Part shown: one piece after another, positions 26,036 through 30,898 of the stretch
How the letters are laid out: each line of letters starts with the position of its first letter
Position numbering within the stretch: the stretch's first letter is position 1
Source of the DNA: Alphaproteobacteria bacterium
GTDB taxonomy: Bacteria > Pseudomonadota > Alphaproteobacteria > Sphingomonadales > Sphingomonadaceae
Assembly: GCA_030431875.1 (NCBI GenBank)
Contig: JAUIIG010000001.1
Coordinates: forward strand, 37,539 to 101,538
Direction of reading: 5' to 3'
DNA length: 64,000 nucleotides
Program-made: the position numbers and the translations under genes
Notes under the pieces: generated by a model
The model's input: only the letters and a program-made list of their open reading frames with translations
Told to the model about the DNA's origin: nothing
Database searches by the model: none

Positions 26036-26050
26036 GAACAGATCATGATC
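26036..26050 (+). promoter_or_regulatory. Alphaproteobacterial LexA-like box overlapping the ruvA start
   Basis: GAAC-N7-GATC versus consensus GAAC-N7-GAAC. Confidence 0.45.
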
Positions 26051-26656
26051 GCAAAGCTGACAGGCAAGCTCGACGAGACCGGTGAGGACTGGGCGATCGT
26101 CGACGTGCAGGGCGTGGGCTACCTCGTCCATTGCTCGACCAAGACGCTGGCCGCGCTGGGGGCGGTGGGCGATGCCTGCACCGTCCATACAGACCTGCAG
26201 GTGAGTGAGAACGACATGCGCCTGCTGGGCTTTGCAGAAAGCAGCGAGCGCGACTGGTTCCGCCTGCTGACCGCGGTGCAGGGCGTGGGCAGCAAGGTCG
26301 GCCTCGCCATCCTGTCTGCCTTGTCGACCGGAGAACTGCGTGATGCCTGCGCGGCGCAGGATGCCGCCACGGTGGCGCGCGCCAATGGGGTTGGGCCGAA
26401 GCTGGCCGGACGCATCGTCAACGAATTGAAGGATAAGGCCGGGGCCATGCCTGGCGTTGCTGACGGCGGCATGGCTGGCGGCACGGCAGTCTCTCCTGCA
26501 GGCGGGGCGAGCGCCGATGCCGTCAGCGCCTTGCAGAACCTCGGCTTCAAGCCTGCTGTTGCTGCGCAAGCCGTGGCCCGGGCGCAGGAAGAACTCGGTC
26601 CCGACGCGGGCGAGGGCGAGCTGATCCGGGTCGCGTTGAAGAGGGCAGCGGGATGA
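26045..26656 (+). CDS. ruvA: Holliday junction branch migration protein RuvA
   Basis: [15 protein letters not shown] HhH, ALQNLGFK. Confidence 0.97.
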
Positions 26657-27048
26657 TGCGCAAACTGATCGTTTTCGGAGCTGTCACGGCCCTGCTGGCG
26701 GCTTCTCCGGCCATGGCCTGTCGCAGCGCCTATTCGGAGACGCACGTCTTCCTGCCAACCCTGCCGAAGGAGCTCGACCCGGGGATGGTTATCCTCCGCG
26801 TGGCCCCGCCAGTCGAGCAAATGGACGAGAACTACGTGGCGCGGGTGCGGGTGATCGAAGCAGTGCAAGGCGACTGGAACGGCGAGACTGCCATGATCGA
26901 CTACGGCCCCTTCACCAGCTGTTCGCGCGCCGACTTGCCGACGACCGGTGCCTACGTGGTTGGCCAGCGTTCGATCCTGCCTTCACGGTTGGTGGTGCGG
27001 CAATACCGGCGCGGCGAACTCGTCAACGAAGGACGGAGGGATCAATGA
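26653..27048 (+). CDS. Exported hypothetical protein with two Cys
   Basis: Signal peptide (PAMA-C); coupled to ruvA. Confidence 0.7.
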
Positions 27049-27596
27049 CCAGGCTAGCGACAGCCCTTGTGCTCGCGGGCGCATTGCTTGGGACTGCCCC
27101 GGTGGCAGCGCAGGACGTGCCGACCTTCACCTACGGCCCGGTGTTCGAGGACTTCGGTCCCGTCGCTGACGTCGACATGGACATGGCCCTGCCCGCCGAC
27201 GCCTACTTCCGCGTGGCCTTCGATATTTCCGAAGCTGCCGAGCCGGGCGAAGTCAGCCGCCGCATCGAAAGTGCGGCGCGGTTCATCAACATGCACGTGC
27301 GCGCGGGCGTGCCCGAGGAACGGGTGCAGGTCGCCATCGTCGTCCACGGCCGCGCGGGCTTCGACCTGATGCACCAGGATGCTTACGGTGCGCGCAATGA
27401 CGGGGCGGAAAACGCCAACCTGCCCTTGATCGCCGCGCTGATCGAGCATGGCGTGCAGATCTACCTCTGCGGCCAGTCTGCGGCGGGGCTGGGCATCACC
27501 AACGACGATCTCGCGCCCGGCGTGCAGATGGCGCTGTCGGCGATGACCGCCCACGCGCTGTTGCAGCAGCAGGGCTATACGGTGAACCCGTTTTGA
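27045..27596 (+). CDS. Exported DsrE-family protein
   Basis: Signal peptide; VAFD, VVHG, IYLCGQS, VNPF. Confidence 0.82.
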   Translation: MTRLATALVLAGALLGTAPVAAQDVPTFTYGPVFEDFGPVADVDMDMALPADAYFRVAFDISEAAEPGEVSRRIESAARFINMHVRAGVPEERVQVAIVVHGRAGFDLMHQDAYGARNDGAENANLPLIAALIEHGVQIYLCGQSAAGLGITNDDLAPGVQMALSAMTAHALLQQQGYTVNPF

Positions 27597-27613
27597 ACTT
27601 AGCCATCAACCCT

Positions 27614-27642
27614 CGTCATCCTGAACTCGTTTCAGGATCCAT
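27614..27642 (+). repeat. CGTC-tagged REP palindrome, left copy
   Basis: CGTCATCCTGAACTCGTTTCAGGATCCAT. Confidence 0.8.
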
Positions 27643-27649
27643 CGCGCAT

Positions 27650-27967
27650 TCAGCGCTGGGGCAGCGGCGGCAAGCCGAGCCCCGGTGCGAGGTCATGCCA
27701 GTCGGGGTTGTCGCTCTCGATCAGGTTGATCTTCCATTGTCTGTGCCACCGTTTGAGCTGCTTCTCGCGCGCTATGGCGGAGCCCATTTCATCGAACAAT
27801 TCATAGCGAACGAGCCTGTGGACCCCGTGCTGGCTGGTAAATCCCGAGACTGCATCGGTGCGATGCTGGTGAAGTCGGGTAATCAGGTCGCTGGTGACGC
27901 CGATGTAGATCGTACCGTAGGCCTTGCTCGCAAGGATGTAGACGCAGGGTTGGCGCGGAGACAGCAT
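27650..27967 (-). CDS. Small standalone GIY-YIG nuclease
   Basis: CVYILAS...IYIGVTSDL..RLHQH, AREKQLKRW. Confidence 0.9.
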   Translation of the reverse strand: MLSPRQPCVYILASKAYGTIYIGVTSDLITRLHQHRTDAVSGFTSQHGVHRLVRYELFDEMGSAIAREKQLKRWHRQWKINLIESDNPDWHDLAPGLGLPPLPQR

Positions 27968-27987
27968 GGTTCGGAGACTGGTGCGAA

Positions 27988-28016
27988 ATGGATGCTGAAA
28001 CAAGTTCAGCATGACG
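27988..28016 (-). repeat. CGTC-tagged REP palindrome, right (inverted) copy
   Basis: Reverse complement CGTCATGCTGAACTTGTTTCAGCATCCAT; 26/29 identical to the left copy. Confidence 0.8.
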
Positions 28017-28029
28017 GTAGGGGGCTGGT

Positions 28030-29058
28030 GTGACCGACCAACCCATCCACTCCCCCGACCGCCAGCCGGAAGACCCGGACGCTGCACTGCGCCCGAAGTC
28101 GCTGCGCGAATTCGTCGGGCAGGAGGCGGCGCGGGATAACCTGCGCGTGTTCATCGAGGCCGCGCGTGGACGCGCCGAGGCTATGGACCACGTGCTGTTC
28201 TTCGGCCCGCCCGGTCTCGGCAAGACTACGCTGGCGCAGATCGTGGCGAAGGAACTTGGCGTCGGTTTCCGTGCCACCAGCGGCCCCGTCATCGCCAAGG
28301 CAGGTGACCTTGCTGCCCTGCTCACCAACCTCGAACCCAATGACGTGCTGTTCATCGACGAGATCCACCGGCTCAATCCGGTGGTCGAGGAAGTGCTCTA
28401 CCCGGCGATGGAAGACCGCGCGCTCGACATCATCATCGGCGAGGGGCCGTCGGCGCGCTCGGTGCGGATCGACTTGCCGCCCTTCACGCTGGTGGGTGCC
28501 ACCACGCGGCAGGGACTGCTCACCACGCCCTTGCGCGACCGTTTCGGCATCCCCGTGCGGCTGGTCTTCTACACCGAGGACGAGCTGATGCGGGTGGTCA
28601 CCCGCGGCGCGGGCCTGCTGGGCCTTGCCATAGACGAAACGGGCGCGCGCGAGATCGCGCGACGCTCTCGCGGTACGCCGCGTGTTGCCGGCCGCCTGAT
28701 GCGCCGCGTGCGCGACTTTGCCCAGGTGAAGGGTGCCGCCACCGTTTCCAGCGCTGTTGCAGACGAGGCGCTCACCCGGCTGGAGATCGACAACCTTGGC
28801 CTCGATGCCATGGATCGCCGCTATCTCACTATGATCGCGGAGACCTACAAGGGTGGCCCGGTGGGCGTCGAAACGCTCGCCGCGGGCCTAGCCGAACCGC
28901 GCGACACGGTGGAGGAAGTGATCGAGCCTTACCTCATCCAGTTGGGCCTGATCGCCCGCACCGCGCGCGGTCGGTGCCTGAATGATGGCGGATGGGCCCA
29001 TCTGGGAATCACTCCGCCCTCGAAACCGCAGGCTGGCCTGTTCGAAGACGAGGGCTGA
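28030..29058 (+). CDS. ruvB: Holliday junction branch migration helicase RuvB
   Basis: [29 protein letters not shown]. Confidence 0.98.
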
Positions 29059-29293: not shown

Positions 29294-30898
29294 ATGTCGG
29301 TACGTATGGCCATTGCGAAACTCACCGCCGCAGCAGCGGGCGGTGCAGTCATCGGCGGAGGCGCGGTGCATGTCGCCGAGCCCCAGGCTGCGCAGGTTGA
29401 CTACAAGACGGGCGAAAATGCCGAGGTTGCCGAAGTCGAGCTGATCGACGTGAAGGACACCCCGGTGGCACAGCGCACCATCCCGCCGCGGCCGCGCGAA
29501 CAGCGCCGCCTGCGCCGGACGATCGAGACCGAGTGCTGCGAGGAAGTGGCCATGGGCATGCCATTGCCGCTGCCCCCGCTGCCTTCGGCACCCGTGCGTG
29601 GTGGCGGTGGCGGCCAGCAGGTTATCGTCGGTGGCAGCACCGGCGGTTTCGGTGGCGGCTTCGGCGGCGGTTTCTTCGGCGGGTTCTTTGGTGGCTCGGG
29701 CGGCGGCGGCAGCGTCGTGGTCGACATGAGCACCACCACTTCGGGCTCCAGCTCCGGCTCGTCGAGCGGCGACATCATTATCGACATCGACAACAGCTCG
29801 ACCGGCTCTTCGACCTCGACCAGCTCGGGCGGTTCGTCGACCTCCACCTCGGGCGGTTCGACCAGCACCAGCACGGGCGGCTTCACCAGCACGACGTCGA
29901 GCGGCACGATCACCAGCACGAGCACCAGCTCGACCGGTGGTTCGTCTTCGTCGACCTCTACCGGCGGCGTGACCAGCACGACTTCGTCCTCGACCGGTGG
30001 TGTCACCAGCACCACGGGCGGTGTCACCAGCACCTCGTCCTCGTCGGGCAACGTCACTTCGTCGACCAGCGGCTCCAGCTCCAGCTCGGGTTCGTCGAGC
30101 ACCAGCTCGTCGACTGGCGGCAGCACCAGCGGTTCGTCGTCGACCAGCGGCTCGTCCTCGGGCTCGTCGAGCGGCAGCAGCTCGGGCGGCAGCAACGGTG
30201 GCCACGGTTCGTCGAGCTATGGCGGCACCAGCGGCCATGGTTCTTCCAGCTATGGCGGCACCAGCAGCTATGGTGGCAGCAACGGCGGCAGCACCGGCAG
30301 CTCGACCACGTCGAGCACCACCGGTGGCAGCACGACCGGCAGCACCACCAGCGGCGCATCGACCACCTCGACTTCGTCGGGTGCAACGTCGAGCTCGACC
30401 ACTTCGGGTAACGTGACCAGCACGACCTCGACCGGCGGCAACACCACCTCGACCACGACCGGCGGATCCACCACCACTGGCGGATCGACCACCACCACGG
30501 GCGGCAGCACCGGCGGTTCGACCACGGGCGGCAGCACTGGCGGCGTGTCGACCACGACCTCGACCAGCACCGGCGGCGTTTCGACGACCACCGGCGGCGT
30601 GACCTCGACCAGCTCGACCTCGGGCAACGTGACCTCGTCGACCTCGGGCTCCAGCTCGACCTCGACCAGCACCAGCACGTCGACCTCGACCTCGTCGAGC
30701 ACGTCCTCGTCCACTTCGACCTCGTCGTCGACCAGCGGCAGCACGAGCAGCTCTGGCGGAACGACTGGCGGCACTTCGTCGGGTACCCAGGTCCCGGCAC
30801 CTGGCATGCTGTTGTTGTTCGGTGCGGCAGCCGGCGCAGTGTTCCTGCGTCGTCGTCGCAAGTCGGGCGAAGGCGAGGGCGAACGCCTCGCGGCCTGA
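29294..30898 (+). CDS. PEP-CTERM sorting-domain surface protein with a very long Ser/Thr/Gly tract
   Basis: C-terminal VPAPGMLLLFGAAAGAVFLRRRRK; N-terminal signal-like segment. Confidence 0.88.
   Translation: MSVRMAIAKLTAAAAGGAVIGGGAVHVAEPQAAQVDYKTGENAEVAEVELIDVKDTPVAQRTIPPRPREQRRLRRTIETECCEEVAMGMPLPLPPLPSAPVRGGGGGQQVIVGGSTGGFGGGFGGGFFGGFFGGSGGGGSVVVDMSTTTSGSSSGSSSGDIIIDIDNSSTGSSTSTSSGGSSTSTSGGSTSTSTGGFTSTTSSGTITSTSTSSTGGSSSSTSTGGVTSTTSSSTGGVTSTTGGVTSTSSSSGNVTSSTSGSSSSSGSSSTSSSTGGSTSGSSSTSGSSSGSSSGSSSGGSNGGHGSSSYGGTSGHGSSSYGGTSSYGGSNGGSTGSSTTSSTTGGSTTGSTTSGASTTSTSSGATSSSTTSGNVTSTTSTGGNTTSTTTGGSTTTGGSTTTTGGSTGGSTTGGSTGGVSTTTSTSTGGVSTTTGGVTSTSSTSGNVTSSTSGSSSTSTSTSTSTSTSSSTSSSTSTSSSTSGSTSSSGGTTGGTSSGTQVPAPGMLLLFGAAAGAVFLRRRRKSGEGEGERLAA
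29713..30785 (+). repeat. Low-complexity coding tract with internal protein-level duplication
   Basis: TGGV...SGNVTSSTSGSSS block at about 29960-30080 and again at about 30537-30660; SSYGG occurs three times. Confidence 0.85.

Follow-up and report, generated by a model that had tools for sequence, protein, structure and literature searches.

A GIY-YIG nuclease gene between inverted CGTC-tagged hairpins at ruvB in Sphingomonadales: a probable Ssn-family locus

In a stretch of 64,000 nucleotides from a sphingomonad alphaproteobacterium (assembly GCA_030431875.1, contig JAUIIG010000001.1, positions 37,539 to 101,538; hereafter the window), a small gene for a GIY-YIG nuclease stands just before ruvB, between two inverted copies of a hairpin that carries a CGTC tag and resembles a repetitive extragenic palindrome (REP). 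This raises the question of whether an enzyme of the GIY-YIG type, rather than an HUH transposase, can be the partner of a REP. A preliminary description proposed exactly this and saw in the 403-bp cassette a minimal mobile unit, analogous to a REPtron, whose nuclease recognises or spreads the hairpin. Our analysis of the window and of the 2.96-Mb genome that carries it (64.5% GC; G000) leads to a reading to which we give a probability of roughly 85%: the locus is of the Ssn family, with a GIY-YIG nuclease and two inverted cognate CGTC hairpins, and is an old resident at ruvB.

The nuclease gene encodes 105 amino acids. A Pfam search identified PF01541 (E 1.9e-14) over nearly the full length of the protein and no second Pfam domain. 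An NCBIfam search with the protein gave no significant family; the group I intron endonuclease model reached 13.5 bits against a cut-off of 56. Only distant matches were returned by a sequence search of the PDB, namely a UPF0213 protein (E 0.0015) and UvrC. A tblastn search of a plasmid collection, on the other hand, gave a match with an E value of 3e-26 in a 2.17-Mb replicon of Neisseria gonorrhoeae. The matching open reading frame (ORF) is 94 codons long and has canonical copies of the Neisseria hairpin NTS on its flanks. In BLASTP it showed 59% identity to the window protein over 88 residues without gaps (E 2e-37). The replicon in question (L182; NZ_CP119140.1, 1881878-1882938) is filed as a plasmid and bears 12 annotated features.

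These matches point to a characterised enzyme. Chenal et al. (2025) described N. meningitidis SsnA as a 94-residue, single-domain GIY-YIG protein of CDD entry cd10448 (GIY-YIG_unchar_3), the entry that defines Ssn (PMC11893778). SsnA binds the CGTC-tagged NTS hairpin in single-stranded DNA (ssDNA) only, and its cut lies immediately upstream of the hairpin; other Neisseria and Wolbachia have homologues that act likewise on their own hairpins (PMC11893778). The same work found a nearby motif for 71% of Ssn homologues, on both sides for 42%, and likened the NTS-ssnA-NTS arrangement to an insertion sequence or to a system of REPs and REP-associated tyrosine transposase (RAYT). With the gonococcal protein as comparator, the tblastn value lies well below the threshold for Ssn homology used there (E < 1e-10). 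Because the window protein is identical at 59% of positions, without gaps, to a protein flanked by NTS, we assign it, from sequence comparison, to the Ssn family of hairpin-specific ssDNA nucleases. In 27 orthologues the M1 start and residues Y10, Y21, R31, H35, E68, N81 and N87 are invariant.

The two 29-nt repeats of the preliminary description were both recovered where it had placed them, CGTCATCCTGAACTCGTTTCAGGATCCAT at 27614-27642 (+) and CGTCATGCTGAACTTGTTTCAGCATCCAT at 27988-28016 (-). The window contained two matches to the 29-nt repeat, and 100 shuffled sequences contained none. With a weaker extension of 6 nt on each arm, the inverted repeat reaches 35 nt at 86% complementarity (27614-27648 / 27982-28016). 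The left arm consists of the tag, an 8-bp stem (ATCCTGAA/TTCAGGAT), a 5-nt loop (CTCGT) and a tail CCAT ending at 27642. Folding as ssDNA gave, for each arm, a stem of 8 bp and a loop of 5 nt (-6.1 and -6.7 kcal/mol, z -3.0 and -4.3). Three positions distinguish the arms. Two of these, C7->G and G23->C, are partners in one stem pair and compensate each other, as had been noticed earlier; the third, C15->T, is in the loop.

Covariation was examined in 119 hairpin copies from 24 related genomes, corresponding to 46 distinct sequences, with a search pattern that permitted non-pairs at all four variable stem positions. Four of the eight stem pairs vary, almost solely by double compensatory substitutions: 6:24 (T:A 77, C:G 41), 7:23 (C:G 79, G:C 32, T:A 4), 9:21 (T:A 84, C:G 34) and 11:19 (A:T 84, G:C 34). 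In the set of 46 distinct sequences, pairing holds for 97.8% of cells and drops to 17-52% when the register is slid. None of 500 shuffles reached the observed covariation. The stem sequence is under structural selection, and the proposal to this effect in the preliminary description was right. The GTC before the palindrome and the C after it, which are the top positions for SsnA cleavage and binding, respectively (PMC11893778), are invariant or nearly so in the 46 distinct copies and are present in the window hairpin. The difference between the two window arms corresponds to two widespread stem alleles. The combination of a G:C arm upstream and a C:G arm downstream of the gene recurs in at least 8 other species and in G022, G034 and G035, and about half of all cassettes have unlike arms. 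This frequency agrees with the prevalence of heterodimers reported for this REP class by Di Nocera, De Gregorio and Rocco (2013), who defined the CGTC-tagged REP superfamily (PMC3733652). Its features are a CGTC or TGTC tag, a stem of 8-9 bp opening with A-T, a loop of 4-5 nt and a CCA tail; the repeats occur mainly in Alphaproteobacteria, mostly as inverted dimers and often as heterodimers, and were reported without a dedicated transposase (PMC3733652). The window hairpin has the unpaired tag, the 8-bp stem opening with A-T, the 5-nt loop, the CCA tail and the dimeric arrangement of that description, and fits subclass CGTC-2 as judged by the text description alone. It is both an Ssn-related motif (SRM) and a REP of the CGTC type.

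We then considered whether gene and hairpin belong together. Nucleases of this kind being only rarely flanked by REPs would have counted against the preliminary description. Surveyed were 80 loci from about 80 Sphingomonadales species (Erythrobacter, Aurantiacibacter, Qipengyuania, Porphyrobacter, Sphingobium, Novosphingobium, Sphingomicrobium and others) with nucleases of 66-81% identity, zero mismatches being allowed in the hairpin core. The hairpin was present on both sides of the gene, tags outward, at 52 loci, and on at least one side at 70. Hairpins of the window type flank nuclease homologues of 65-100% identity, and canonical NTS-like hairpins are found on both flanks of homologues with 48-57% identity. 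The type of hairpin is thus specific to the protein clade.

Two further observations concern other hairpins of the same genome, outside the window. Contigs C16, C42, C44, C68, C69 and C86 carry about a dozen canonical NTS-like hairpins, CGTCAT[TC]CCCGCGMAGGCGGGRATCCAG, with variants on C19 and C70; most of them form inverted heterodimers at a distance of about 77-81 nt. A nuclease gene flanked by NTS was not found in this assembly. A second Ssn-type gene (G000:C72:192150-192560; L002, 1398-1776) encodes a protein of 99 residues that shares 47% identity with the nuclease of the window and 58% with the gonococcal protein. A perfect inverted repeat of 36 nt, CGTCATTGCGAGGAGCGAAGCGACGCGGCAATCCAG, encloses the gene with its tags outward. 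This repeat, with a CGTCATT head and an AATCCAG tail as in NTS, is a third type of hairpin and occurs in the genome at this gene only.

The number of hairpins also follows the gene. The genome of the window contains six copies of the hairpin, which form three inverted pairs, one bearing the gene and two being gene-less doublets. Nuclease homologues are patchily distributed (31 of 61 related genomes) and are multi-copy in some genomes, pseudogenes included. Seven genomes have a homologue of at least 59% identity, and together they contain 79 hairpins (2 to 25 per genome); the remaining 54 genomes contain 40, mostly 0 to 2 per genome (Mann-Whitney p = 2e-6 over the 61 genomes, ignoring phylogeny). 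A control with the reversed pattern gave 0 copies in every genome. The expected co-occurrence of the REP family with the GIY-YIG clade was therefore observed. Together with the homology to SsnA and the clade-specific hairpins, it favours the part of the earlier proposal that names a GIY-YIG enzyme, not an HUH one, as the partner of the REP.

Most hairpin copies are gene-less inverted doublets at unrelated loci. Two spacing classes, measured from start to start, were found, 13 doublets of 62-64 nt and 6 of 111-113 nt, all with unrelated flanks, and similarity between doublets starts and stops at the tags. The bases just inside the doublet arms resemble the inner ends of the cassette; for example, CGAGAAATGGATCC is common to a doublet of G013 and the cassette of G022. 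These features would fit doublets that are gene-deleted derivatives of the cassette. The arms are nearly identical and the length of the spacer is conserved, whereas the spacer middles are unrelated between copies (L084-L101 and the two doublets of the window genome); unrelated spacers of fixed length do not fit recent copying of whole doublets. One of the two doublets of the window genome folds into one long hairpin (-37 kcal/mol, z -8.4). At least 10 congeners lack the doublet G000:C72:26940-27031 in their orthologous intergenic region beside dapB, a region too diverged for exact boundaries to be drawn. This dapB-side region is a hotspot for several REP families, and in G008 (L064) and G030 (L065) it holds another palindromic repeat, with core CCTGAGCTTGTCGAAGG... 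/ ...CCTTCGACAAGCTCAGGG. We also observed that an outward tag stands exactly 13 nt before a start codon at two places, the GTG of ruvB (gap 28017-28029) and the ATG of a sirtuin/CobB-like gene (gap G000:C72:27032-27044). Both gaps hold a purine-rich run resembling a Shine-Dalgarno sequence, and similar purine-rich flanks occur at several doublets of relatives; with intergenic regions this short, it could be chance.

How old is the cassette at ruvB? Among the 50 genomes carrying the nuclease clade, the cassette is 55-650 nt from the ruvB start in 26 and away from ruvB in 24. In Erythrobacteraceae and Novosphingobium the cassette and ruvB diverge; in five Sphingobium genomes they are co-directional. 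The gene on its other side is ruvA in G022, G034, Aurantiacibacter luteus and Erythrobacter W302b, and a DsrE-like gene in the window genome and in one Qipengyuania genome, which has both junction spacers in common with the window. In 27 genomes, pairwise distances of the nuclease and of RuvB are correlated (Spearman 0.50, Mantel p about 5e-4), with the nuclease evolving several-fold faster (81-94% identity where RuvB has 97-98%). Because the nuclease diverges broadly in step with RuvB and the ruvB seat is occupied in 26 of 50 genomes, the comparisons indicate that the cassette is an old, mainly vertically inherited resident at ruvB in Sphingomonadales, sometimes lost, and not a recent insertion. 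Copying or movement of the whole unit has apparently occurred as well: G022 contains two paralogous cassettes, 77% identical from tag to tag, and their similarity ends exactly at both tags.

The preliminary description had suggested a search for alleles with an empty site. Alleles without the cassette do occur. In G015 and G017 a block of 437 bp that includes the cassette is absent, and the stop codon of the DsrE-like gene overlaps the TTG start of ruvB (GTTTTGACCGACC). In the window genome the block is bounded by TGA direct repeats. We considered these two alleles as pre-insertion sites with a 3-bp TGA target duplication and dropped this reading in view of the junctions common to Qipengyuania and of the order-wide seat at ruvB. 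Since a Qipengyuania genome has both junction spacers of the window, G015 and G017 are better read as probable deletions between the TGA repeats than as virgin sites. A separate observation was made in G016, the closest congener by RuvB (97%), where an unrelated AT-rich insert of about 210 bp (L035, ~1975-2215, orthologous to 27597-28029) replaces the cassette. It sits exactly at the junction of the DsrE-like gene and ruvB, and the point upstream of ruvB therefore receives insertions repeatedly.

The features of the locus are collected in Table 1. The gene order is ruvA, an ORF of 131 codons, the DsrE-like gene, the cassette (antisense) and ruvB. The stop codon of the nuclease gene is at 27650-27652 and its ATG start, conserved across 27 orthologues, at 27965-27967; the frame stays open upstream, through the hairpin, as far as 28087, but the orthologues give no support to this longer ORF. 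The tag of the right arm ends at 28016 and the GTG of ruvB is at 28030, which gives the 13 nt stated before; this short spacer is homologous to its counterpart in G035 and in one Qipengyuania genome. A permissive Rfam scan of 27000-28600 gave zero matches. A promoter and terminator scan at the locus found nothing for the nuclease gene or for ruvB, and no T-run. Beyond ruvB, an ORF of 534 codons (29294-30898, +) consists almost entirely of Ser/Thr/Gly runs, a low complexity that gives rise to spurious long ORFs in its other frames; its end, a hydrophobic stretch and then RRRRK, resembles a sorting signal of the PEP-CTERM type.

Table 1. Features of the nuclease locus, with neighbouring genes, and positions of the two gene-less doublets of the same genome (G000)
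Feature	Position	Strand	Basis or remark
Left arm, 3' of the nuclease gene	27614..27648	+	inverted-repeat search, fold, motif scan
CGTC tag of the left arm	27614-27617	+	outward-facing, away from the gene
Right arm, 5' of the nuclease gene	27982..28016	-	tag outward; stem pair 7:23 is G:C, against C:G in the left arm
ssn-type gene, 105-aa single-domain GIY-YIG nuclease	27650..27967	-	Pfam PF01541, homology, orthologue start
13-nt spacer GTAGGGGGCTGGT, right tag to ruvB GTG	28017..28029	+	only Shine-Dalgarno-like run for ruvB
17-nt spacer ACTTAGCCATCAACCCT, DsrE-like stop to left tag	27597..27613	+	homologous to the spacer in Qipengyuania L180
437-bp block: both spacers, 403-bp cassette, one TGA	27597..28033	.	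absent in G015 and G017
ruvB (context)	28030..29058	+	GTG start at 28030
DsrE/DsrF-like gene (context), between ruvA and the cassette	27045..27596	+	
ruvA	26045-26656		context gene
Gene-less doublets	G000:C64:18720-18810; G000:C72:26940-27031		33-34-nt spacers

By analogy with the Neisseria and Wolbachia enzymes, the 105-residue protein would bind its hairpin only in ssDNA, as exposed during replication, in incoming ssDNA or in extruded hairpins. Recognition would involve the sequence of the stem and the C that directly follows the palindrome, and hydrolysis would take place on the tagged strand, a few nucleotides 5' of its CGTC. Since the tags point outward, each strand would receive one cut, just outside the cassette or doublet. 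To our knowledge, GIY-YIG enzymes are hydrolytic, and neither strand transfer nor a covalent intermediate is known for them. A hydrolytic enzyme of this kind cannot rejoin DNA, and any mobility would therefore depend on host replication and repair. The cuts may lead to dispersal of hairpins, to restriction of incoming ssDNA as in Neisseria or to both, and the nuclease may have a role in spreading or maintaining doublets.

Several points weigh against the assignment to an old Ssn-family locus. The gonococcal comparator is not itself the assayed protein; we infer that it is the orthologue of meningococcal SsnA. At this gonococcal locus the nearest NTS tags face inward, opposite to the sphingomonad loci. 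Six hairpin copies imply that any genome-wide role in the genome of the window would be small, and the test that links copy number to the clade takes no account of phylogeny. Finally, the published SRM pattern, HGTCWYN(0-2)YYVSBRHN(0-5)WNVSBRGN(0-2)RNCYNB, misses both window arms with their CTGAAC stem. This pattern is a search aid built from 29 genomes and not a biochemical definition; the CCCCGGA-stem variant of the hairpin family and the NTS-like repeats of the window genome do fit it.

The recurrence of the pairing bears on whether the hairpins could be ordinary terminators or mRNA-stabilising REPs that lie beside an unrelated gene by coincidence. Both hairpins are intergenic, and REPs are often found at gene ends. 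Yet there is neither a T-run nor a terminator-like match, one arm lies upstream of the gene, the pairing recurs in 52 of 80 species and paralogous proteins carry different, matching hairpins; coincidence is effectively refuted by this recurrence and by the clade-specific pairing. A free-standing GIY-YIG homing endonuclease directed at a site between ruvA and ruvB would account for the position next to ruvB in 26 of 50 genomes, in both orientations and with a varied gene on the other side, as well as for presence/absence polymorphism among congeners. The protein, however, has no DNA-binding domain beyond its GIY-YIG core of about 100 residues, the nuclease and RuvB diverge together as vertical descent predicts, the seemingly empty sites of G015 and G017 are best read as deletions, and members of the family cut hairpin ssDNA rather than an empty double-stranded site (PMC11893778). 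We judge homing very improbable. The nuclease might instead serve the host, in the way proposed for Neisseria, by restricting ssDNA or controlling recombination; it would cut motif-bearing single strands that enter the cell or become exposed, the flanking copies being a relic of a mobile ancestor or a means of self-regulation. SsnA lowers transformation of N. meningitidis by NTS-containing DNA (PMC11893778), and here the gene and both hairpins have long been conserved at one locus that adjoins the recombination genes ruvA and ruvB, with invariant catalytic residues. As genomes hold 6 to 25 motif copies, a site would be present on few incoming fragments, and a gene absent from about half of the congeners is dispensable. 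Moreover, we know of no natural competence in these Erythrobacteraceae. A host-serving role of this sort seems to us rather doubtful.

The strongest form of the REPtron analogy holds that the nuclease excises and disperses hairpins and doublets, moves its own cassette and is the missing transposase of the CGTC REPs. The gene-less doublets at unrelated loci, bounded by tags and with arm-adjacent bases like the cassette ends, speak for it, as do the doublet missing in at least 10 congeners, the dependence of hairpin number on the gene, the tag-bounded paralogous cassettes, and the cassettes that lie away from ruvB in 24 of 50 genomes or are flipped at ruvB in five Sphingobium genomes. Di Nocera et al. 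had found no dedicated transposase for these REPs (PMC3733652). The case for movement is nevertheless circumstantial: hydrolysis leaves the joining to host repair, inverted tags mean one cut per strand instead of the two on one strand made in IS200/IS605, the doublet spacers are a misfit with recent copying of whole doublets, and the gene is mostly stationary and vertically inherited, with only six hairpins in the window genome. The idea itself has already been stated (PMC11893778). We consider it possible but unlikely, and the mobile cassette that spreads the REP, as first described, keeps only this circumstantial support. A related and equally tentative proposal is that an Ssn nuclease creates or maintains the CGTC-REP doublets as a RAYT-like replicator built on hydrolytic GIY-YIG chemistry; we do not expect it to hold. 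Cuts on opposite strands outside the element would leave each broken end with a full single-stranded copy, which host polymerases and repair would fill in and rejoin. The seat at ruvA/ruvB might then reflect a need for branch-migration proteins on extruded four-way hairpins. If true, the doublets would be copied by a route not known from any transposase described so far.

The preferred reading, an Ssn-family locus long resident at ruvB, can be compared with known systems. In common with Ssn/NTS, the window has a single-domain GIY-YIG protein of about 100 residues and a gene within inverted CGTC hairpins that are also dispersed in the genome. It differs in its stem (ATCCTGAA with a 5-nt loop, against ATTCCCGCG with a 4-nt loop in NTS), in having tens of hairpins per genome or fewer where NTS has hundreds, in its outward tags, against inward ones at the one gonococcal locus inspected, and in the conserved home of the clade at ruvB, which is unmentioned in PMC11893778. 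With the CGTC-REP superfamily it has tag, stem, loop, tail and inverted heterodimers in common; the difference is a probable partner nuclease here where no dedicated enzyme was found (PMC3733652). The REPIN-RAYT or REPtron systems (Nunvar 2010; Bertels and Rainey 2011, PMC3116915) likewise have a single-copy, largely vertical gene flanked by hairpins that are found elsewhere as doublets, and in REPIN-RAYT, too, the number of repeats depends on the presence of the gene. Here, however, a hydrolytic GIY-YIG nuclease takes the place of an HUH/Y1 transposase, the tag is CGTC instead of GTAG and the doublet spacers are not conserved in sequence; the layout is common to both, and the locus is not a member. 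The locus is more like the single-copy RAYT of a REPIN system than like an active insertion sequence. Proteins of the UPF0213/YhbQ type (e.g. BH0048, PDB 1zg2) have the same minimal GIY-YIG fold class and size and only a distant relation to the window protein (E 0.0015); we know of no hairpin partnership for them. GIY-YIG homing endonucleases cleave an empty double-stranded target and join the nuclease to a DNA-binding region; the window protein is without a second domain.

Overall, the interpretation first given to the locus is partly supported and was largely anticipated by Chenal et al. The likeness of its layout to a REPtron stands; its novelty does not, as the partnership of nuclease and repeat and the NTS-ssnA-NTS arrangement were published in 2025 (PMC11893778). 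New here are the conserved seat at ruvB and a hairpin type that the published SRM pattern misses; that pattern under-detects such sites. The window locus and its relatives would add to the Ssn family a distinct specificity clade, with CTGAAC/CCGGAC stems, and offer natural enzyme-site pairs for mapping the specificities of Ssn nucleases as ssDNA tools. These comparative data also bear on a question of both the 2013 and the 2025 papers, whether Ssn nucleases may be the cause of the CGTC REPs: gene and hairpin co-occur, units are bounded by tags, doublets look like cassettes that have lost the gene, and the home at ruvB is stable and inherited vertically.

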